The translations under genes were made by a program, and so were the position numbers. Positions 9,186 through 40,640 of a DNA stretch of 64,000 bases are shown one piece after another. How positions within the stretch are numbered: the stretch's first letter is position 1; every line of letters starts with the position of its first letter. The stretch covers positions 103,838 through 167,837 of the forward strand of contig CALXZM010000003.1 of assembly GCA_944393245.1 (NCBI GenBank), written 5' to 3'. Source of the DNA: an uncultured Alphaproteobacteria bacterium. GTDB lineage: Bacteria; Pseudomonadota; Alphaproteobacteria; Rs-D84. The notes under the pieces are model-generated. The model had not been told where the DNA came from, ran no database searches, and worked only from the letters and a program-made list of their open reading frames with translations.

Positions 9186-9245
9186 TATCGGGGGAATGGC
9201 CCCCATATTGCATATAATACATTTGGTATGACGAGAGAGCATAAA

Positions 9246-11750
9246 ATGAAATCGAAATATATTTTGGCTGCGGTTGTGTGTTCGGGTGCGTTGGCATTGG
9301 CGTTTGATTCATGGGGGCTGACAACCACGGCAAAAAAACAGTCTGCGATTCAGCAGGGGACAACTGTTCGTACCAAGGTACAGGCCACGGGGCTGTATGA
9401 TCAGGCATGTTATGATGCTTATTTTGGTTGTATGGACCAGTTTTGTATTACTGATAATGCCAGTGGTGGTGCATGCAATTGCAGTGATGATGTAAATCAA
9501 TATAATGCAGAATTGGCCGCCATAGAAGATATATTGGATGAAGCGAATCGTTTGCGTACCGAAGAAATAGACCGTATCAAGGCCGGGGCTGATGCTGATA
9601 TTGTGTTTTCTGGTGAACGCAGATATGACGAAGATGGGAATGTTTTATATGATGGCGAATTGAGTGCAGCAGAAGAAAAAGAACAAAAACGTGCGGACCT
9701 GTTGGCTGTCTTTAATACAAATTTATATTCTGAATCAGAAGAAGAGGTTACCACGCAAAGTATAGCCGATATGACCGGACGTGCGTTATATAATGCTGCT
9801 AATGAATTATGTATGGCCCAGATTCCTGATTCCTGTGCGGGGGATATAGTATTTTTACAGCAATTGTATTCGCGCCAAATTGTATCTGATTGTTTGGGGT
9901 ATAAAAATTCTTTGGCGCAACAACGTACAAAGGCTGAAAATGAATTACATGCTGCCGAATCCGAAGTTCGGGTCGCCTTACAGGAAAGCCTGGAAAGTTC
10001 CAACAAGTACGATTTAGGTCAGTGTATGGTTGAATTCAAAAAGTGTATGCAGACCACAGATGCCTGTGGTGAAAATTGGGAAAATTGTGTTGCTGAAATT
10101 GCGGCTGAAAATATGCAGGCAAATGATGATACGCAAAAATTGGTTGCATATACCGTAACCGATGATACGGAAACGTTTGGTCTGGCGCAAAGTACATTGG
10201 ACAGTTTGAATAACAAGCGACCCATTTGCGAAAATGTTTTGGACCAATGTGTTGCCGTGCGTAACCAGGTATGGCCCAGTTTCCTGCGTGAAGCGGCCCC
10301 AACAATCAAGGTGGCCGAAGACCAGGCAGAATCAAAATTCCGTCAGTCTTGTTTGACGTCGATTTCCGACTGTATACAAAATGCGTGTCGCGATGATATT
10401 GCGGGCAAGGGTGTTGCCACAATGGATGCATGCTTGTCACGCCCAGATATGGCGCGCAGTTTTTGCAAGGTCGAAATTGAACCCTGTGAACGTATGGAAC
10501 CACTGATTTGGGGGTATGTCGAAGATAAATTGGCCGCCATGCGGGTTGATGCATGTACCCAGGAAGTCAAAGACTGCTTTACCGCGGATACACGGTGCGG
10601 GCCTAATTTTGAAAATTGTATCGGTATGGATTACGAATATATTCATGACATTTGCCCGATTGACAGCCTGGTTGTGTGCAAGGCAAATAATCCGGCATTT
10701 TCCATGGATGATTTGGACGATATGTTAATGGGACTGTATTTGAATATTGATAATTCGATGATGGAACAGTGCCAGAATGTTGTCGATCAAAAAATGGCTG
10801 AAATTTGTGGCAGTACAACCGACTGTAACAGATTTGCGGCCGATGATACAATTGGCACCGGATCACTGCGCAGCCAAAAGGACGGGGACGTTTATCGCGT
10901 AACTGGCATGATATCATTTGGCAGCATAATAATGGGTGACAGTGATGGCGAAACTATCACTGATGAAGATGGTGAAACCGTGCGTTTAGGACCAGGCGAA
11001 ATCGGGGTTGGCGAATATATCGCCAAAATCCGCGAAAATAACAAAGATGTTCCAAATGCAGATGCCATTATCACCACAATAGAAGAAGAATTAAATAATA
11101 TCGCCGGTACTATTAACCGTACCATTGAAATGATTGAACAAGATCCTGAAATTCAATATTGTGTTAATGGACGCGATTTGTCCCAGATTACAGGCGAAAA
11201 GGGGGCCGCAACCACTGGACGTTTCCCGAATTTGTTAAATCAAGTCAAAATGCAAATCGCGACATCTGCACTGCGACAGGCACAGGATAACTATAATAAT
11301 AAATTAAATACCGCCATTGCAGAAGCAACGCAAAATGCTTCCACTGATTTGGCTCAATATATGTGCCAGAAAATAGCAGAAAATGGTGGCGCGGGCGGCA
11401 CATCGGTAAGTGCATCTACACCACTGACGACACCATATTCAATCAGTTATGACGTTGGGGCTGGATTATCAACCGAAGATTTGGCCCAGGGCGGCGCAGG
11501 CGTTTTGCAGGCTGATGGCGTAACGTTTACAAACAAAGGCTATTTGGGCGGTTCCAGTATGAATGGTGGCGGTATAACAAAAACTGTTCGTGCGATATTT
11601 AGTCGCGATACCAGAACGTGCCGTATTTGCACACAAACTGTTACACAGGATTGCAAAACATCGGGCAGTGTCAGTTGGTTCCACAATAATCGTAACACCA
11701 GTTGCACAACCAACGCGTCCGAAGAAGTGTGTGAAGATATTGTTATGTAA
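9246..11750 (+). CDS. Large secreted Cys-rich coiled-coil protein, family member 3 (~834 aa). Tail ...CEDIVM
   Basis: Start chosen at MKSKYIL (GAGAG RBS); alternative ATG at 9228. Motifs ACYDAYFGCMDQFC...CNCSD, ACGENWENCV, PICENVLDQCVAVRNQV. Hairpin terminator 11753-11786. Confidence 0.65.
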   Translation: MKSKYILAAVVCSGALALAFDSWGLTTTAKKQSAIQQGTTVRTKVQATGLYDQACYDAYFGCMDQFCITDNASGGACNCSDDVNQYNAELAAIEDILDEANRLRTEEIDRIKAGADADIVFSGERRYDEDGNVLYDGELSAAEEKEQKRADLLAVFNTNLYSESEEEVTTQSIADMTGRALYNAANELCMAQIPDSCAGDIVFLQQLYSRQIVSDCLGYKNSLAQQRTKAENELHAAESEVRVALQESLESSNKYDLGQCMVEFKKCMQTTDACGENWENCVAEIAAENMQANDDTQKLVAYTVTDDTETFGLAQSTLDSLNNKRPICENVLDQCVAVRNQVWPSFLREAAPTIKVAEDQAESKFRQSCLTSISDCIQNACRDDIAGKGVATMDACLSRPDMARSFCKVEIEPCERMEPLIWGYVEDKLAAMRVDACTQEVKDCFTADTRCGPNFENCIGMDYEYIHDICPIDSLVVCKANNPAFSMDDLDDMLMGLYLNIDNSMMEQCQNVVDQKMAEICGSTTDCNRFAADDTIGTGSLRSQKDGDVYRVTGMISFGSIIMGDSDGETITDEDGETVRLGPGEIGVGEYIAKIRENNKDVPNADAIITTIEEELNNIAGTINRTIEMIEQDPEIQYCVNGRDLSQITGEKGAATTGRFPNLLNQVKMQIATSALRQAQDNYNNKLNTAIAEATQNASTDLAQYMCQKIAENGGAGGTSVSASTPLTTPYSISYDVGAGLSTEDLAQGGAGVLQADGVTFTNKGYLGGSSMNGGGITKTVRAIFSRDTRTCRICTQTVTQDCKTSGSVSWFHNNRNTSCTTNASEEVCEDIVM

Positions 11751-12296: not shown

Positions 12297-13192
12297 ATAT
12301 ACCCTGTCATTGCGAGCGTAGCGAAGCAATCCATTATTTACCTTTGTGTTCCATAATGTGTCGCTCGGGTACTGCGTACCCTGTGCGTATCCTCGTATTT
12401 GTTCAAACTGCGCAATTGCTTGTTTTCACATACTCGGATTCATCGCGAGTGAAACGAAGCAATCCAGTAAATATGCGCGACTTTGATTATAAATGGATTG
12501 CCGCGCCACTAACGTGGCTCGCAATGACAAGGTTGGGTGCATAATTGTATTATTATCACAGATATTACGAATTGTGTCATTGCGAGCGTAGCGAAGCAAT
12601 CCATATGCTGTTACCCGTTATTTGTAAGTCGTATGCCTTTTGTAATTGCAAGCAACGCGAAGCAATCCCTTCTTTATCATCGTGTTCCATACTGCGTACC
12701 CTGTGCGTATCCTCGTATTTGTTCAAACTGCGCTATCGCTTGTTTTCACATACTCGGATTCATTGCGAGCCACATTAGTGGCGTGGCGATCCAGGGTTGC
12801 AATATGTCACGCGTCGCGCGGACAATATTTACTGGATTGCTTCGCTACGCTCGCAATGACAAATAGATTTATGGCACAGCATATACTTATTTATGGGGCA
12901 TTTGGTGTTGTACCTTTCAAATATTTTTAATATCTCAGTATAACAATCCTAATATACTTACCCGCACCCAACTTTGTCATCGCGAGCCACGTTAGTGGCG
13001 TGGCGATCCAGGGTTGCAGTATGTCGCGCGTCGCGCGGACAATATTTACTGGATTGCTTCGCTACGCTCGCAATGACAAAGGAAAGACACAAGTCACGAA
13101 TAGCTAGCCATGGGTAACTAGTAAACGTATCTGGATTGCTTCGCGTTGCTCGCAATGACAAAGGAAAGACACAAGTCACGAATAGCGAGCCA
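12297..13192. repeat. Cluster of nested short palindromic repeat elements (MITE/REP-like): ~10 copies of a 27-bp core GTCATTGCGAGCGTAGCGAAGCAATCC in both orientations, plus two ~80-bp and two ~95-bp duplicated units
   Basis: Core at 12305-12331, 12575-12601, variant at 12642-12668. Reverse copies 12834-12860, 13051-13077, 13132-13158. Partials at 12445-12465, 12516-12528, 12761-12771, 12976-12988. 80-bp unit at 12372-12450 and 12692-12770. 95-bp unit at 12766-12862 and 12983-13079. Confidence 0.8.
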
Positions 13193-13254: not shown

Positions 13255-15954
13255 TTATGATGCGCATTTATTATTAGAAAATTGTACTTCTACCTTGCGG
13301 CAATTTTTATCATACTTGCTGGTGCTGTTACATTGGGTCGAACCAACACCGCTGGCTGTTATGTTTGACGCGGACAGCCCACCAGATACCAGTGCATTTT
13401 TAACCGCATTTGCACGTCGTTCGGATAGTGGCTGATTTATTGCATCGGTACCGCTGTTATCTGTGTGACCGGTAACGGTAATACAATAATCTGTATTGGT
13501 GCCAACCTGGGCTTTAACGTCTGTGACAAAGGTGTTCAGAACACTTTGTGCATCGGATGTTAAATCTGACGAGTTCAATTCAAACAGGTTGCCTGCATTC
13601 AATGTAATTGTTGGAATTTCGACAACTGGTTGAAGAATTTCGGTTATTGCGGGAATCGTCTGCTTTGTAACGCATTGACCCTGGGCATTGATTTCGTGTG
13701 TTGCGGTCGGGCAGTGGCATTTTGGTGTTGCGTCACTGCTTAAAGTATATCCGTCGGTGCAACTGCAATCACCGGTGTTCGGGTCAACGGTGACGTGTCC
13801 GGCGGAAGTATCACATTTTGCCGTTACGGTTGGTGCTGTAGGGGTAACACACGTATTGTTTTCACCGGGTAATGTTCCGTCTGGACAGTCACAGGTGTTA
13901 TTCACAGAAACCATATCGCCGGGACAGGATTCGCACATATTTGTATTTGCGTTATGTATGTATTTTGTGTTTGTGCATACGCAGTTCGGATATGTTCCAG
14001 TTGCGTCAGACGGACATTTAGCCGTAGATTCAGCGTCCGGCAATTTTGCGGTATTGTCGCGTAATTTCTTTAATGGTTCATATTTTGCCAGAATTTCGTC
14101 AGAACTTTCGCGGGGTTTGTCACCAACATAGTTCGTTAAAACATTGCCGGCAATCCCAACCAATGCACCTGCACCGGCAACAATCGCACCCGTCGTTAAT
14201 TGCGATGCTGTTTCCGCACGCTGCGCCGCCCATTCTGCCGCATCCGAACCAGTCGGATTGGACAACGCACGCGATATTGACGCATAGGCACCATCGGTTA
14301 TACCAGTCGATACATTGTCATATAATCCAGATGTTGCCGCATCCAGAATAACTTCGGATTCTATACCAGGGGCCATCCCCAGGGACTCTTTACGCGTTTT
14401 TAAATCTGCCGCCAATGTCGTATATTCGTTATATATTGGCAATAATACGTTTGCACCGGGTAAAACGATTCCTGTTTCACCACCAGTAATGGTCATGCCC
14501 GCACCATAATCGCATTTGAATGTTGCCAGATATGCCACCATATCACGTTCTGCGTCCGCATCAGCATTTTGTTCGGCCAGTGCGGATGCAACCTGCATTC
14601 CGCCAATACCCATTGCACCCATTGATGCGCCACCAACCATGCGGTTTGCCAACGATTGTTCACGTTCACGCATCGCATCGGCGTTTTCCTGTAATTCCGC
14701 GATTTGCTTTTGGGCATCTGCCTGGGACAGGGTCGGTTCGATGCAAGATTTTTTATCATTGCTGATGCTGTATCCGTCGCGACAGGCGTCTATAATACAT
14801 ACCTCAACCCCGGCGGTGGAATCGTATTCACGATGTGCAGATGTAGCATTTTCCGGCATCGGACTGCAATTGCCAGATATAGCAATACATTTGCCGTCCG
14901 ATACTTCGTACCCGGCATCGCATTCAGTTGCGTGACAGACGCCAAGCTTTAGCTCACCGGCCGTTGCGTGTTCGATTTGTTGAACTTGGGCGTCGGTACA
15001 GGGACCTTCTCTGACATCACAGGCGGTGCCAGCATCGTTTAGTAAATATCCATTGTTACACTTTTTAATTTTGCATTTTAGTGTATTGTTTTCCCAAACA
15101 TATTCGGATTTTGATGCATTTGCATCGGTTGCGGTGCATTCCTTGCCAACCTGGTCGACACATTGTGCAGTATTTCCTGTTCCAACCAATTTGTAACGGT
15201 CAGATTCACATTCGGTTGGGTAACAACCATTATCTTTGTCAGTTCTTGGCTCTGCTTTTTTGGCATGTAACTTTTTTAATTGTTCGGGACCACAGGCAAT
15301 AGATATTGCAGCGGGCAAGTTTTCTGTTTCCGCTTCTAATGTTACTGTTATAGAATTATCTGTTTTTGATATTGGAACATTTTTTGTTTTATAGAAGGCA
15401 AAAGAAATTTCCAACTCTGTTACGTCGTTTGGAACATTTATAGAAAATTTACCATCATTGTTTGTATATGTATAATCTGAATTATTCAGTTTTTGGTTAT
15501 CTGGCTTAACTATTTTGACGGTGGCACCCGGCATAGGGGTGTTATCACTATCATATACCGTGCCGGTAATTAAATACGTCGCCGATGCAGATGAATTAGC
15601 AGAATCTGTCGCGGTTGATGCAGGTGTTGTGTCGGGTGTGGACGTTGAAGCATCTGAATCAGTAGTTAGATATCCGTATGCACAACGATGCCCAATTCCA
15701 GTATAAGTACATTCATAATATTTGCCATTGGCTTCTATTGAGCATGTCAACAATTCACACTCTATGGATGCATCCAGAACAGCGGATAGATCTGTACCAG
15801 TTAATTGATTTGTATTCGCTAAATCTGAGATATACTTACATAATTCTGATTTTGGTTTGGATAAATTGTCCCCCTGACAATCGGGGTGTGTTGTTTGGCC
15901 GAATGCGGGCAGGGCGAATAATACTGCAAAAAATCCGAACAAATACTTTTTCAT
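13255..15954 (-). CDS. Large exported OmpA-family protein: signal peptide, carboxypeptidase-regulatory-like domain, Cys-rich repeats, C-terminal OmpA peptidoglycan-binding domain
   Basis: N-terminal MKKYLFGFFAVLFALPAFGQ. YLITGTVYDSDNTPMPGATVKIV... CarbopepD_reg-like. Repeated C..C..GY......C modules. C-terminal TGHTDNSGTDAINQPLSERRANAV motif of OmpA_C. Terminator on the minus strand at 13224-13254. Confidence 0.75.
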   Translation of the reverse strand: MKKYLFGFFAVLFALPAFGQTTHPDCQGDNLSKPKSELCKYISDLANTNQLTGTDLSAVLDASIECELLTCSIEANGKYYECTYTGIGHRCAYGYLTTDSDASTSTPDTTPASTATDSANSSASATYLITGTVYDSDNTPMPGATVKIVKPDNQKLNNSDYTYTNNDGKFSINVPNDVTELEISFAFYKTKNVPISKTDNSITVTLEAETENLPAAISIACGPEQLKKLHAKKAEPRTDKDNGCYPTECESDRYKLVGTGNTAQCVDQVGKECTATDANASKSEYVWENNTLKCKIKKCNNGYLLNDAGTACDVREGPCTDAQVQQIEHATAGELKLGVCHATECDAGYEVSDGKCIAISGNCSPMPENATSAHREYDSTAGVEVCIIDACRDGYSISNDKKSCIEPTLSQADAQKQIAELQENADAMREREQSLANRMVGGASMGAMGIGGMQVASALAEQNADADAERDMVAYLATFKCDYGAGMTITGGETGIVLPGANVLLPIYNEYTTLAADLKTRKESLGMAPGIESEVILDAATSGLYDNVSTGITDGAYASISRALSNPTGSDAAEWAAQRAETASQLTTGAIVAGAGALVGIAGNVLTNYVGDKPRESSDEILAKYEPLKKLRDNTAKLPDAESTAKCPSDATGTYPNCVCTNTKYIHNANTNMCESCPGDMVSVNNTCDCPDGTLPGENNTCVTPTAPTVTAKCDTSAGHVTVDPNTGDCSCTDGYTLSSDATPKCHCPTATHEINAQGQCVTKQTIPAITEILQPVVEIPTITLNAGNLFELNSSDLTSDAQSVLNTFVTDVKAQVGTNTDYCITVTGHTDNSGTDAINQPLSERRANAVKNALVSGGLSASNITASGVGSTQCNSTSKYDKNCRKVEVQFSNNKCAS

Positions 15955-23937: not shown

Positions 23938-23967
23938 TTGACGTACCCTGGAATTTTTGGGTAAAAT
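23938..23967 (+). promoter_or_regulatory. Sigma70-like promoter TTGACG-17-TAAAAT upstream of the invertible leader
   Basis: ttgacg(23938-43) + 17 bp + taaaat(23962-67). A near-identical promoter recurs at 39580-39609. Confidence 0.5.
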
Positions 23968-23980
23968 AAAATCGAACAAA

Positions 23981-24085
23981 TGCCTAATACAAACCAACGA
24001 TTGCATTAGGCATATTTATTTTTGTAACAATCCCGGATTTCTGCATTTTATTCTCCCCTTTCGTGCCTAATGCAATCGTTGGTTT
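23981..24085. promoter_or_regulatory. Putative invertible leader switch: perfect 22-bp inverted repeats (23991-24012 / 24064-24085) flanking a 51-bp cassette (24013-24063) that encodes RBS+ATG+11 codons. Currently OFF for the downstream gene
   Basis: rc(aaaccaacgattgcattaggca) = tgcctaatgcaatcgttggttt. The cassette is identical (51/51) to 39488-39538, where it is in the productive orientation for gene 38592-39521. Confidence 0.6.
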
Positions 24086-24983
24086 GTGTGCGGTTGTTTT
24101 GGTTGGATTTGGGGTTACATCAACCGCGCTTGGGGCGGGCTTTCGCGATGGGGGAACCAGCAGTGTGTATACATGTCAGGCACCGGGTATGGGTACTGTA
24201 ACGGGATGGGACCCAACCAATTGGTCCCAGGCACCAATTGAATATGGCGCACGCAGTGAATTAAGCAGTCAGGATGCAATACCAAATTGCAAAACAACAG
24301 AAGTAATTTCATATATATCAGATTCGCGCGTAGGCGCATCAAAGAGAAATTCTTGTGCGAAATGTAATACTGGATACCGTTTGGTATCGTATACCGCGCC
24401 ATCAATAAGACAACCCGATTGTATCGTTACATGGGAAGAATGTGAAAAGGATGAATTACCAGACGATCCCCTGGAACTGTGTCCAGATGAGTGTAAAATG
24501 TTGGGGGGCTGGATGGATGTGCCCAAACAAACCGGCCTTCAAACGCAATGTGATCCACTGGAACAAAAGTGTTTATACAGATGTGGCCCAGGTTATTATA
24601 ATGCGGCTTTATCTATTGGGACAATGTGTCAGCCGTGCCCAGATAATGTGCTATCCACATCTTGTGCTGGTGGTGCAGATTACAATTCTGTATGCTGTGA
24701 ACGTGGATATTACAGACAGACCATAACAAGAAACACATCAACTGGGCTGATAATTAGGTATAAAGATGTTACATGTCCGCGTTGTCCGTCGTTGGGTGGG
24801 GTGTATGGAACAACACCGATGAATCAGTGTGTGTCATCTATTACAGCATGTTATATTCCGGCAAATACACCAATAAAAAGCACGCCGGGAACTTATGTAT
24901 TTACCAATGATTGTGATTATTCCACGACTGCTGCTGGCACAGGTACTGTAACGCCAGTTCAGCCAGATGTGGCAAATCCATAG
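24063..24983 (+). CDS. Small secreted Cys-rich protein, family member A (306 aa). As assembled it has a GTG start and no RBS (switch OFF)
   Basis: N-terminus PNAIVGLCAVVLVGFGVTSTALGAGFRDGGTSSVYTCQAPG is near-identical to 38592-39521. 24 Cys. C-terminal ACYIPANT...GTYVFTNDCDY motif is shared by all three family members. Confidence 0.65.
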   Translation: MPNAIVGLCAVVLVGFGVTSTALGAGFRDGGTSSVYTCQAPGMGTVTGWDPTNWSQAPIEYGARSELSSQDAIPNCKTTEVISYISDSRVGASKRNSCAKCNTGYRLVSYTAPSIRQPDCIVTWEECEKDELPDDPLELCPDECKMLGGWMDVPKQTGLQTQCDPLEQKCLYRCGPGYYNAALSIGTMCQPCPDNVLSTSCAGGADYNSVCCERGYYRQTITRNTSTGLIIRYKDVTCPRCPSLGGVYGTTPMNQCVSSITACYIPANTPIKSTPGTYVFTNDCDYSTTAAGTGTVTPVQPDVANP

Positions 24984-38591: not shown

Positions 38592-39521
38592 TTATTCATC
38601 TTCGGTATAATTACACTTTTGGGTAAACTGGAATGTGCCTTCGGTCATACGTATACTTGTATTCGGGGGTATATAACACCTGGTTATATGCGATGGTGTC
38701 GGTGCAAACATTGGACATTCTAGCAGGGTTGTCCCATATACCAAGGGAAGACCTATCCCAATTGATGGACAACGCAAACAATCATAATCCTTGGCGCGGA
38801 CCCCCGTTATTCCACCACCGGATTCAACGTAATTATTATCTATTAAATAATATCCAACATCACAACATGGCATAATCGTACCGGCAGGACAACCGTCCAT
38901 AGTATGATCTGGACACGCCTTGCAATTTGGTCCAGAACCGGCTACCATCATACCACCTGCATTATAATAATTGGATTTACATTGATATTCGCATTTGTTG
39001 GTGCTGGTGTTACAACGTGTTTGATAATTTTTACCGCTAACATTCATCCAGGATGTTCTACCCTCGCACGCCAGACCATCGCATGGGGTGTCCTTTACAC
39101 ATTCTTCCCATGTAACAATACAGTCCTGTTGTCTTTGTGACGGCATTGTGTGTGATACCAAATGGTATCCAGTATTACATGCAGAACATGTATTACGTTT
39201 GCCCCCACCAGACATCATCCCACCGTTGGGTTTCGCATAATATTCTATGGTTGTTGTTGTTTTACAATTTGGTATGGGATCGTCACTGGCCAAATCACTT
39301 TGTCCGACATATCCATCGACTGGTACCGACCAATCTGTTGTGTCCCAACCCACCATGGTGAAGCCGGGATCCTGGCACGTATAAAAACTGTCCGTTCCCC
39401 CATCGCGAAAGCCCGCCCCAAGCGCGGTTGATGTAACCCCAATTCCAACCAAAACAACCGCACACAATTGAACGATTGGATTAGGCATATTTATTTTTGT
39501 AACAATCCCGGATTTCTGCAT
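38592..39521 (-). CDS. Small secreted Cys-rich protein, family member B (309 aa). Leader cassette in ON orientation
   Basis: GGGGAG RBS + ATG inside the 51-bp cassette (39488-39538) gives MQKSGIVTKIN then MPNPIVQLCAVVLVGIGVTSTALGAGFRDGG, near-identical to the 24063 gene. 30 Cys. C-terminal RCYIPPNT...GTFQFTQKCNY. Confidence 0.7.
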   Translation of the reverse strand: MQKSGIVTKINMPNPIVQLCAVVLVGIGVTSTALGAGFRDGGTDSFYTCQDPGFTMVGWDTTDWSVPVDGYVGQSDLASDDPIPNCKTTTTIEYYAKPNGGMMSGGGKRNTCSACNTGYHLVSHTMPSQRQQDCIVTWEECVKDTPCDGLACEGRTSWMNVSGKNYQTRCNTSTNKCEYQCKSNYYNAGGMMVAGSGPNCKACPDHTMDGCPAGTIMPCCDVGYYLIDNNYVESGGGITGVRAKDYDCLRCPSIGIGLPLVYGTTLLECPMFAPTPSHITRCYIPPNTSIRMTEGTFQFTQKCNYTEDE

Positions 39522-39654
39522 TTTATTCTCCCCTTTCGTGCCTAATCCAAACGGTGGTTTAAAAACAGTAAAAATATGATTGACGCACCCCAGAATTTTC
39601 GGCTAAAATAGAAACAAACAAATGCCTAATGCAAACCACCGTTTGGATTAGGCA
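39476..39654. promoter_or_regulatory. Nested putative invertible elements between divergent family genes: 12-bp IR (39476-39487 / 39539-39550) around the 51-bp leader cassette; 19-bp IR (39539-39557 / 39636-39654) around a 78-bp promoter segment
   Basis: ttggattaggca / tgcctaatccaa flank the leader. tgcctaatccaaacggtgg / ccaccgtttggattaggca flank the promoter. Hairpin tgcctaat-N16-attaggca at 39623-39654, as at 23981-24012. Confidence 0.55.
39580..39609 (+). promoter_or_regulatory. Sigma70-like promoter TTGACG-17-TAAAAT, currently pointing at gene 39670-40320, inside the IR-flanked 78-bp segment
   Basis: ttgacg(39580-85) + 17 bp + taaaat(39604-09). Homologous to the promoter at 23938-23967. 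Confidence 0.5.
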
Positions 39655-39669
39655 CGAAAGGGGAGAAAC

Positions 39670-40320
39670 ATGAAAAAATTTTTTATCATATTGGCAATTA
39701 GTGTTGGAATTATAACAAGTGCTGACGCTACGTCTACGGTATCGCCTTGTACATCGATGTTAAGGCCATACGATTGTGGTAATAATTGTTGCGCTGCAAA
39801 TGCGGCCAGTTGCAAAACGCAATGTCCAAATATAGTAATAACGGAATGCGAAGGTTTGGTATGTGAAAATAAAATGACATGGACCAATTATGGTGATCCT
39901 GGAAAGCAGATAAAGTGTAATACGGCTTCAGATACCTGTGAATACCGTTGTAATCCAGATGGTTATTACAGAACCAGTGTTGGTGGTGGTTCGGCCATGC
40001 GATGTGCAGAATGCCCAGACAATGCAACATGTTCACAAGGGACAAGTGTATGCTGTAATCAGGGACATTATCCTGTAACAAATGTTTATATGGCCCCTGG
40101 ATTGACCGGCCAGATAACAGAATATACATGTCCATCTTGTCCAGGGTATTTGCGTTATTTATCTGCAACTTCACCAGCTGGGACGTATGTGCCTGGTACA
40201 ACGGATGCCGCTTCATGCCCTGCTGCTATAGGTGCGTGTTATATCCCCAGTGGGACATATTCTGGTGATATAACTGGCAGATTTCAGCTGACTGGTAAGT
40301 GTCACTATAAAGAATCATAA
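39670..40320 (+). CDS. Small secreted Cys-rich protein, family member C (216 aa)
   Basis: GGGGAGAAAC RBS. Signal peptide MKKFFIILAISVGIITSADA. 24 Cys. Shares CEYRCNPDGYY, CAECPDN, C-terminal GACYIPSGT...GRFQLTGKCHY with members A and B. Terminator 40338-40362. Confidence 0.7.
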   Translation: MKKFFIILAISVGIITSADATSTVSPCTSMLRPYDCGNNCCAANAASCKTQCPNIVITECEGLVCENKMTWTNYGDPGKQIKCNTASDTCEYRCNPDGYYRTSVGGGSAMRCAECPDNATCSQGTSVCCNQGHYPVTNVYMAPGLTGQITEYTCPSCPGYLRYLSATSPAGTYVPGTTDAASCPAAIGACYIPSGTYSGDITGRFQLTGKCHYKES

Positions 40321-40370
40321 TATGATACATGATACAGAAATCCCCATATTATGGGGATTTTTAATTTAAA

Positions 40371-40484
40371 ATCACCCACAAAATTATACAATTTTGCGGG
40401 GCCCGACAAATCACCCACAAAATTTTGCAATTTTGCGGGGCCCGACAAATCACCCACAAAATTTTGCAATTTTGCGGGGCCCGA
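40371..40484. repeat. Tandem direct repeat, 39-bp unit x 2.9 (ATCACCCACAAAATTTTGCAATTTTGCGGGGCCCGACAA)
   Basis: Units at 40371-40409 (2 mismatches), 40410-40448 and 40449-40484 (truncated). Each contains the palindrome CAAAATTTTG. Confidence 0.85.
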
Positions 40485-40555: not shown

Positions 40556-40640
40556 TGGTGGCCCTGGTCGGACTCGAACCGACACTCCTTGCGGAACTTG
40601 ATTTTGAGTCAAGCGCGTCTACCAATTCCGCCACGGGGCC
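40556..40640 (-). tRNA. tRNA-Leu (anticodon CAA)
   Basis: Minus strand reads ggccccgtggcggaattggtagacgcgcttgaCTCAAAAtcaagttccgcaaggagtgtcggttcgagtccgaccagggccacca. Class II long variable arm. Encoded CCA. Bidirectional terminator 40523-40550. Confidence 0.85.

Follow-up and report, generated by a model that had tools for sequence, protein, structure and literature searches.

In Escherichia coli the fimS segment (314 bp, with fimB and fimE adjacent) and in Salmonella the hin segment (about 1 kb, with hin inside it) carry a promoter between inverted repeats, and inversion of the segment turns a surface structure ON or OFF or exchanges it for an alternative one. Invertible promoters and expression-site inversions are, as such, already known. 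Here we describe a locus of this general kind in a 64,000-nucleotide stretch of DNA (hereafter, the window) from an uncultured alphaproteobacterium. Between two divergent genes for Cys-rich secreted proteins, here called geneB and geneC, lie a promoter unit (P) and a leader unit (L) that carries a translation start; a second locus in the window has a leader unit in front of a paralogue, geneA. We put the probability at roughly 80% that these elements form a two-tier DNA-inversion phase-variation switch that controls a family of Cys-rich secreted or surface proteins. The resemblance to fimS and hin lies in the promoter on an invertible, repeat-flanked segment; unlike them, the segment here is only 72 bp between 35-nt arms, and no recombinase was found linked to it in the window.

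Promoter invertons with 12-bp inverted repeats serve the mpl genes of Mycoplasma penetrans, where the tyrosine recombinase MYPE2900 acts on them (PMC3047005). The present locus is like mpl in its small promoter invertons, its very short repeats, its multigene surface family and its genome-reduced, host-associated bacterium; in both systems the repeat sequences vary by locus, and the mpl recombinase is not adjacent to each of its targets. However, each mpl promoter toggles a single gene ON and OFF, whereas here a single promoter would serve either of two divergent paralogues, and a second invertible unit, with a translation start, is coupled to it, in an alphaproteobacterial host. At the mba/UU376 and UU172/UU171 inversion loci of Ureaplasma parvum (PMC3047005), short inverted repeats likewise lie in a 5′ coding region and an intergenic spacer, two opposed neighboring surface genes alternate, a palindromic element is present, and the suspected recombinases are Xer-like. 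There one inversion moves the promoter and the 5′ end of the gene together; here the promoter occupies one unit of about 80 bp and the translation-start cassette another, and the two would flip independently, at sites with a regular 84-bp period. The cwpV switch of Clostridioides difficile has 195 bp between 21-bp inverted repeats and is inverted by RecV (PMC2784873). As at geneA, the invertible element is downstream of a fixed promoter, and its OFF orientation was proposed to form a stem-loop followed by poly-U, an intrinsic terminator, in the leader RNA. Unlike the cwpV element, which is about 2.5 times as long, the L unit holds a Shine-Dalgarno sequence, a start codon and 11-16 codons, and its terminator is only a putative one. 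Finally, the expression-site inversions of M. pulmonis vsa, M. bovis vsp and M. agalactiae vpma, carried out by tyrosine recombinases of the Xer1/HvsR type (PMC2268961; PMC3047005), set a unique promoter (vsp, vpma) or a promoter together with a ribosome-binding site and the 5′ end of the open reading frame (ORF; vsa) before silent genes, through sites in the 5′ untranslated region (UTR) or 5′ coding region as in the present case. Those systems shuffle kilobase-scale clusters and have the recombinase gene beside the locus, whereas here the moving parts are about 80 bp long, the genes are stationary and no linked recombinase gene was found in the window.

Partial intergenic and gene-altering invertons have been catalogued by PhaVa and by Milman et al. 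(bioRxiv 10.1101/2023.03.11.532203). Like the partial intergenic ones, the L unit overlaps a gene boundary and alters the encoded product; unlike most catalogued cases, which are long, shufflon-like and domain-swapping, L swaps a translation-initiation region for non-coding U-rich sequence. The shufflon itself (R64 Rci/sfx) is not matched: three to four sites and two units are present, but they carry a promoter and an N-terminal start, not alternative C-termini, and rci is adjacent to its locus whereas no adjacent recombinase was found here. Literature searches returned no earlier description of this switch in Enterousia, the genus to which the host is close (see below), or in other Alphaproteobacteria. 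What is new is the bidirectional promoter toggle with an independent, adjacent, invertible translation-start cassette, the unit size of about 80 bp with a constant 84-bp period, and the conservation of co-varying arms across an uncultured genome-reduced genus for which the same searches yielded no phase-variation system.

The geneB ORF (38592-39521, minus strand) encodes a 309-aa and the geneC ORF (39670-40320, plus strand) a 216-aa Cys-rich secreted protein. The P segment (39561-39632, 72 bp, plus orientation) carries a predicted promoter, with a -35 element TTGACG at 39580-39585 and a -10 element TAAAAT at 39604-39609, that faces geneC; a promoter scan gave it an 18-nt spacer and 10/12 consensus matches, and its transcripts are predicted to begin near 39616. 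The segment is framed by a perfect 35-nt inverted repeat, identified by a repeat finder at 39526-39560 and 39633-39667 with 72 nt between the arms. The left arm includes the half-site TGCCTAATCCAAAC (39539-39552), a spacer GGTG (39553-39556) and GTTT, and the right arm contains the geneC Shine-Dalgarno sequence GGGGAG (39660-39665). Because each arm runs from the Shine-Dalgarno sequence GGGGAG of the flanking gene through TGCCTAATCCAAAC-GGTG-GTTT, geneB and geneC share an identical 5′ UTR. The downstream end of the P segment bears a further half-site, S3. Its core, TGCCTAATGCAA at 39623-39634, pairs with 39641-39654 to make a 14-4-14 palindrome directly downstream of the promoter, and this full site (39623-39654, plus strand; TGCCTAATGCAAAC-CACC-GTTTGGATTAGGCA, 13/14 complementary) is also a predicted 5′-UTR hairpin with a free energy (dG) of -16.7 kcal/mol. 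In either promoter orientation, the full site is always just downstream of the promoter. It should be noted that the ATG of S3 opens a nine-codon upstream ORF, MPNANHRLD-stop (window 39623-39652), in the geneC leader without a Shine-Dalgarno sequence. At loci of the L013 type the corresponding ATG shares the frame of the gene downstream, and the protein P0018 starts MPKNAEKKPPFIFGINGENKMQKSG.

On the geneB side lies unit L. Its cassette (39488-39538, 51 bp, minus strand) is ON for geneB: on the minus strand it reads cgaaaGGGGAGaataaaATG and then 11 codons, MQKSGIVTKIN, in frame with the ORF 38592-39521, with the Shine-Dalgarno sequence GGGGAG at 39528-39533 and the ATG at 39519-39521. Codons 1-11 of geneB thus sit on the invertible cassette itself (16 codons counting the half-site). 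The cassette is flanked by TTGGATTAGGCA (39476-39487) and TGCCTAATCCAA (39539-39550), a perfect 12-nt inverted repeat that the repeat finder extended to 15 nt at 93%. Its outer boundary is site 2 (39470-39487, minus strand), made of the half-site GATTGGATTAGGCA (39474-39487) and the 4-nt spacer GAAC (39470-39473). On the gene strand this half-site reads TGCCTAATCCAATC and encodes M-P-N-P-I, and in loci where the cassette is reversed (OFF) it moves together with the cassette.

A preliminary description of this region had placed every one of its sequences correctly, the perfect 12-bp repeat around the 51-bp cassette with its GGGGAG, ATG and 11 in-frame codons among them. Its 19-bp inverted repeat around the promoter exists as part of the longer, perfect 35-nt repeat that takes in both Shine-Dalgarno sequences; its promoter match and orientation hold, with a spacer of 18 rather than 17 nt. 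It counted three core sites where there are four, having overlooked the one at 39623-39634, and it called the modules nested; instead P and L are adjacent and share the middle site. The window has seven core sites, including those of a second locus at 23.9-24.1 kb. Allowing one mismatch at most, these seven copies of the 12-mer core compare with 0.49 expected, and all fall within the two loci. The 32-nt arm sequence, expected 0.00 times from shuffles, was found three times (the third copy at 24051-24082), and 14-4-14 full sites were observed twice vs. 0.02 in shuffles. The repeat architecture is not due to chance.

The second locus shows the leader in its other orientation. GeneA (24063-24983, plus strand) encodes a 306-aa paralogue of geneB with 50% identity; a database protein, P0024, agrees with geneA over its first 60 residues. 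Upstream is a predicted fixed promoter, TTGACG-18-TAAAAT (23938-23967, plus strand), that has no upstream repeat arm, followed by a full palindromic site and hairpin (23981-24012, plus strand; TGCCTAATACAAAC-CAAC-GATTGCATTAGGCA, 12/14 complementary) and, in the present state, by TATTTATTTTTG. The 51-bp cassette (24013-24063, minus strand), which is OFF relative to geneA, is bounded by a perfect 24-nt inverted repeat (23989-24012 and 24064-24087), and the invertible element sits between the fixed promoter and the gene body. It is identical at 51/51 positions to the cassette that is ON for geneB. With the cassette directed away from it, geneA has no Shine-Dalgarno sequence and no ATG, only a GTG start, and is therefore predicted to be silent; simulated inversion of 24013-24063 produced MQKSGIVTKINMPNAIVGLC, continuing in frame with geneA.

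Related loci, labeled L001 to L021 (the two loci of the window being win24k and win39k), came only from assemblies in the ENA and were reached by protein look-up. Direct evidence for inversion of P comes from L018, a 100-kb contig (ERZ24773394). Its flanks match the window at 100.000% on the geneC side (0 mismatches in 2,688 nt) and 99.894% on the geneB side (2 in 1,891 nt), and the segment between the arms is reversed at 100% identity, with the promoter facing geneB. L019, which agrees with the window at 100% in 4,651 nt, has the promoter oriented as it is there, and so do L020 and L021. In L001 the flanks are 95.8-97.6% identical, and a segment with 71/72 identical positions faces geneB. L008 and L010 represent another chromosomal locus; they are collinear, encode an identical protein (P0021) and have flanks 99.1-99.7% identical, and their 72-bp segments agree at 72/72 positions as reverse complements only (24/72 in direct comparison). 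Polymorphisms in the arms of this pair place the P crossover in GGTGGTTT / AAACCACC. The flip of P thus recurs in three independent strain pairs with flanks 97-100% identical. L014, a locus of Candidatus Enterousia intestinigallinarum, keeps the architecture with other arm sequences (TGCCGAAAAAAATCGGTGG / CGACCGATTTTTTTCGGCA), and its promoter faces the other gene. The promoter TTGACG-18-TAAAAT is kept, as a consensus match, at both loci of the window and at all related loci. In sum, both orientations of P exist in one strain background.

For L, the comparison is between paralogous loci and between strains, and here too both orientations exist. In L006, the geneB-clpX locus at the syntenic position in another strain (93.8% identity over 1.9 kb), the promoter faces geneB and the cassette lies reversed relative to the gene. 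OFF cassettes are also found in L005 (where the arms, TGCCGAAAACAAACGG, form a perfect 16-nt inverted repeat), L011/L012 and L015, and ON cassettes in L001, L002, L007-L010 and L016. Simulated re-inversion regained an intact MQKS...MPN... signal-peptide ORF in 5/5 OFF loci. In L015 it did so only when both 14-nt half-sites were flipped with the cassette, since a flip of the cassette alone gave a TAA stop. The invertible L unit should therefore measure 14 + 51/53 + 14 = 79-81 bp, and crossover should fall within the 4-nt spacers or beside them. Database proteins agree with leader inversion: those that have the leader read MPN.I[VG]QLC, and P0002 and P0023, from loci called OFF, read MPNPNGQLC. 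The preliminary description had proposed that both elements invert. For the promoter this is borne out by L018, by L001 and by L008 against L010, and the predicted arrangement, with the promoter directed through the ON leader into geneB, is the state of L001. For the leader it is borne out at geneA, L006, L005, L011/L012 and L015, not between near-identical strains. Exact pattern searches found no match to the leader pattern AGGGGAGAATAAAATGCARAAATC in genome or metagenome contigs, nor to the promoter-cassette pattern AAAAACAGTAAAAATATGATTGAC among metagenome contigs.

The geometry of the sites is regular. Each consists of a 14-nt half-site (TGCCTAATNCAA[A/T]C) beside a 4-nt spacer, and successive sites are 83-85 bp apart in 15/15 switch regions examined, for P and L units alike. 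Half-sites start, for example, at 34, 118 and 201 within the region of L001, at 27, 111 and 196 in L010, at 118, 203 and 286 in L016, at 57 and 140 in win24k and at 46 and 130 in L014. The period holds though P and L are unrelated in sequence and the cassettes range from 51 to 53 bp. The arms are of the form TGCCTAAT.CAA in some lineages and TGCCGAAAA.AA or TGCCGAAAAAAATC in L002, L005, L014 and L016, and they are always matched within a locus, a co-variation that extends as far as Ca. Enterousia intestinigallinarum. In core sites for tyrosine recombinases, such as loxP, FRT and dif, two inverted arms enclose a 6-8-bp spacer common to both partners. In a recombining pair here, one site is a good 14-4-14 (or 12-8-12) palindrome, and the partner has one good arm and another of about 6-7/14. 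The spacers are identical in the P pair and differ in the L pair of the window (GGTG vs. GTTC). In the clpX-linked region of L016 (2750-3070), three modules follow one another; a perfect 22-nt inverted repeat encloses one of these, which resembles an inverted leader cassette but is degenerate and has no ATG. Two arm types are joined there in a hybrid full site, TGCCGAAATAAAAC-GGTG-GTTTGCATTAGGCA. The serial modules and the hybrid site point to a history of exchange between site types.

In the switch that we propose, the series of sites about 84 bp apart would set the bounds of two units, each of about 80 bp and invertible independently of the other. Unit P, with the sole good promoter and one half-site, would flip between the 35-nt arms to direct transcription to geneC or to geneB, and as both arms hold the same 5′ UTR and Shine-Dalgarno sequence, either gene would receive an equivalent leader. 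Unit L, the 51-bp cassette with its two 14-nt half-sites, would supply a Shine-Dalgarno sequence, an ATG and a lysine-containing signal-peptide start. In the ON orientation it would complete geneB (or geneA), and in the OFF orientation it would leave the gene with a GTG only and no Shine-Dalgarno sequence. With P toward geneC, as in the window, geneC would be ON; with P toward geneB and L ON, as in L018 and L001, geneB would be ON; with P toward geneB and L OFF, as in L006, neither would be. At geneA, where the promoter is fixed, L would be the only gate, and it is predicted to be OFF at present. Both flips would be catalyzed by an unlinked site-specific recombinase, with crossover in the spacers, and switching would be frequent and reversible within a population. 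Since P and L each occur in the opposite orientation in other strains, a cell can probably select the surface protein, if any, that it makes.

The L unit may act at one more level. The 14-4-14 palindrome forms a predicted 5′-UTR hairpin with a dG of -5 to -18 kcal/mol overall, and -10 to -18 in most loci. In L-ON states the hairpin is followed by CGAAAGGGGAG; the next 12 nt after it hold 0-2 T in these states vs. 7-10 T in L-OFF states. When L is OFF, the A-rich codons would become a U-tract directly after the hairpin, which resembles an intrinsic terminator, and the OFF orientation may therefore also end transcription, as has been proposed for cwpV (PMC2784873). A rule-based terminator scan made no call on the OFF-state hairpin because the hairpin has one or two internal mismatches, and in L015 the hairpin is weak (-5.2 kcal/mol). 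Given the absence of a call, we hold the idea of termination at somewhat under an even chance. At the switch, Rfam gave only sub-threshold matches to plant miRNAs, which are artefacts of the long hairpin.

Several other observations weigh against the two-tier switch, or parts of it. No recombinase of the hin/fim type, as the preliminary description had envisaged, was found: Pfam and NCBIfam gave no recombinase among ORFs of at least 150 aa in the 64-kb window, out of a genome of about 0.9 Mb, or in about 100 kb of related loci, including the ORFs around L013 and L014. Very tight looping of DNA is needed to invert units of about 80 bp (84 bp from center to center). The lower limit known for recombinase-mediated looping is about 82 bp, between loxP sites for Cre, and the present units are close to it. 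Contig breaks at the switch in L006, L012 and L021 would fit mixed orientations but are only suggestive, the cassette being also a repeat. Inside geneC, at 39736-39709 on the minus strand, is another sigma-70-like match (TAGACG-16-TATAAT, extended TG) that points toward the switch and geneB. It is probably due to chance (2 found vs. 0.8 expected), but it could drive antisense or geneB transcription independently of orientation, and geneB and geneC may for this reason not be strictly mutually exclusive. Lastly, opposite orientations of L are found only where paralogous loci, or strains that diverge by about 6%, are compared. Each of the near-identical L018-L021 carries L in the ON state, and in L011 and L012, which share 99.97% identity, L is OFF and its arms are degraded (11/14). 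Switching of L may therefore be rare, rarer than that of P, or L may be locked in some strains.

These last facts would be expected if P were the sole working switch, and the reversed leaders were fossils, or rare one-off rearrangements, that lock paralogues OFF as a kind of pseudogenization. Degradation of the L arms to 9-11/14 in L001, L002, L011, L015 and L016b, the absence of any downstream half-site in L014 and the degenerate, ATG-less inverted cassette of L016 would fit as well. The OFF cassettes, however, are intact, in that Shine-Dalgarno sequence, ATG and frame were restorable in all five. The two cassettes of the window have remained identical at every position vs. just 50% identity of the genes behind them, perfect inverted repeats of 24, 16 and 22 nt flank the OFF cassettes at win24k, L005 and L016a, the arms co-vary across lineages, and at least four loci or lineages acquired the OFF state independently. 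On balance, we think it unlikely that P works alone.

It is also conceivable that no dedicated recombinase is involved, and that occasional flips between the inverted repeats at the 5′ ends of paralogues, through RecA or template switching, have left an evolutionary polymorphism. The failure to find a recombinase gene in the window and related loci is in its favor; the perfect arms, at 35 and 24 nt, come close to the minimum that homologous pairing requires, and recO is present in the window. Yet the L arms of the window share just 12-15 nt, and the crossover points appear to lie in spacers with almost no homology. The 83-85-bp period is strict across diverged lineages and unrelated unit sequences, the same P flip has recurred in the three strain pairs, and a palindromic full site with co-varying arms resembles a recombination site bound by protein. 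Global invertases are, moreover, often unlinked to their targets, as is MYPE2900 of M. penetrans, which acts on 12-bp repeats (PMC3047005). We consider the recombinase-free origin improbable.

A third idea, that the 142-bp repeat-flanked promoter element is a mobile cassette, akin to a MITE (miniature inverted-repeat transposable element), inserted one way or the other without inversion in situ, might account for the repetition of the promoter cassette at win24k, win39k and L007-L012 and for contigs that stop at the element boundary (L012, L006). It is very improbable, as there is no target-site duplication (the arms are bordered by ...GCATTTTA at left and by ACATGA... at right), the arms themselves serve the flanking genes as 5′ UTR and Shine-Dalgarno sequence, both orientations are found at one and the same position in strains otherwise identical, and the L cassette is left unexplained. 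We rejected the MITE class, since position is fixed in all strains, orientation alone differs and no flanking duplication is seen. A role of the palindromes in RNA or transcription alone, as hairpins or bidirectional terminators, with the repeats a by-product of the shared leader, is hardly credible: the 14-4-14 palindrome is predicted to be transcribed as a stable hairpin at every locus, with arms that co-vary like an RNA stem, but no Rfam family was found at the switch, a role of the hairpin in RNA is compatible with inversion without being a substitute for it, and the physical DNA inversion between the arms observed in L008/L010 and in L018 refutes this explanation as a stand-alone one.

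Returning to the two-tier switch, one extension of it can be offered tentatively. The 84-bp period, about eight helical turns, and the units of about 80 bp might reflect a dedicated recombination machine that works on modules arrayed in series (P, L and, as in L016, additional ones), possibly recombining also between the two loci 15.5 kb apart. We regard this as doubtful on present evidence. Such a machine could be a new recombinase family, or an Xer-type enzyme with a DNA-bending cofactor, and its inversion loops could be the tightest natural ones known. If true, the array would be a compact, modular set of inversion cassettes through which, in a genome of less than 1 Mb, a family of surface proteins is governed at the levels of transcription, termination and translation initiation.

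The proteins under the proposed control belong to one family. Over 167 aa, geneC shares 35% identity with the C-terminal domain of geneB, of which it is a paralogue (E = 7e-22). Forty-three homologues of geneB were found, nearly all from ENA metagenome assemblies; their Cys pattern is invariant, and none of them matched a Pfam or NCBIfam family. Pfam and NCBIfam have no family for geneA, geneB or geneC, and an AlphaFold model of geneB (pLDDT, the model's confidence score, 77.7) had no significant fold match in the PDB, the best being the Cys-rich domains of TNFR1 (E = 0.23). The family proteins are probably surface-exposed. At the chromosomal locus of L008 and L010, a divergent 206-aa paralogue (L008 9318-9959) accompanies the invertible promoter. 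L007 and L009, from the same locus, are without the 206-aa gene and the left repeat arm, and their promoter is fixed and of another allele (TTGACTGGGGCTGGAAAATTCGGCTAGAAT). They look like a form of the switch that arose by deletion or replacement.

A scan of species-representative genomes with a geneB-family profile matched an uncultured alphaproteobacterial metagenome-assembled genome and Candidatus Enterousia intestinigallinarum. The L014 locus of the latter is syntenic with the window through pgk, rnhB, SLT, nrdR, a ccrM-like methylase, clpP and clpX to the divergent pair, and its ClpX is 92% identical to that of the window. Judged by sequence, the host is a genome-reduced gut alphaproteobacterium close to Candidatus Enterousia. 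That genus belongs to the order Rs-D84, uncultured gut Alphaproteobacteria of farm animals and humans with genomes of less than 1 Mb and an obscure lifestyle (PMC12306168). Besides housekeeping genes, family scans of the window showed many large outer-membrane or unannotated proteins. The region is rich in surface proteins for a reduced genome (7-3126, 4002-11750, 13255-17759, 19538-23350 and 50183-55198), and the large proteins there have no Pfam match or have outer-membrane signatures (an autotransporter with Chlam_PMP repeats, OmpA, Pom-like, weak ankyrin). Two repeat clusters were also seen. At 12300-13160, between the ORFs 9228-11750 and 13255-15954, dense repeats of 29-47 nt in both orientations (e.g., TGTCATTGCGAGCGTAGCGAAGCAATCCA) resemble a cluster of repetitive extragenic palindromic (REP) or MITE type. 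At 40360-40480, between the geneC stop codon and tRNA-Leu(caa) (40556-40640), a unit of about 39 nt (aaatcacccacaaaattttgcaattttgcggggcccgac) is repeated three times in tandem, with a copy number that is apparently strain-variable, as indicated by offset self-matches in L017-L021. In L005 (5076-7635), genes for a head-tail connector, the large terminase subunit and Bbp19 adjoin an OFF-leader member of the family, with dnaB and priA on the flanks; in this Enterousia-like genome the phage-like genes could be what remains of a prophage, or a cluster akin to a gene transfer agent.

Elements so short, with arms of only 12 nt, could evade standard inverton finders, and similar switches may therefore be under-counted. 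A translation-start cassette of this kind may double as a terminator, and once the recombinase is found, the 84-bp module could serve as a very compact switch for synthetic biology. For the organisms themselves, a conserved inversion switch at multiple loci suggests that Enterousia vary their surface as mycoplasmas do, and surface variation points to an intimate interaction with the host, with the host immune system or with phages.

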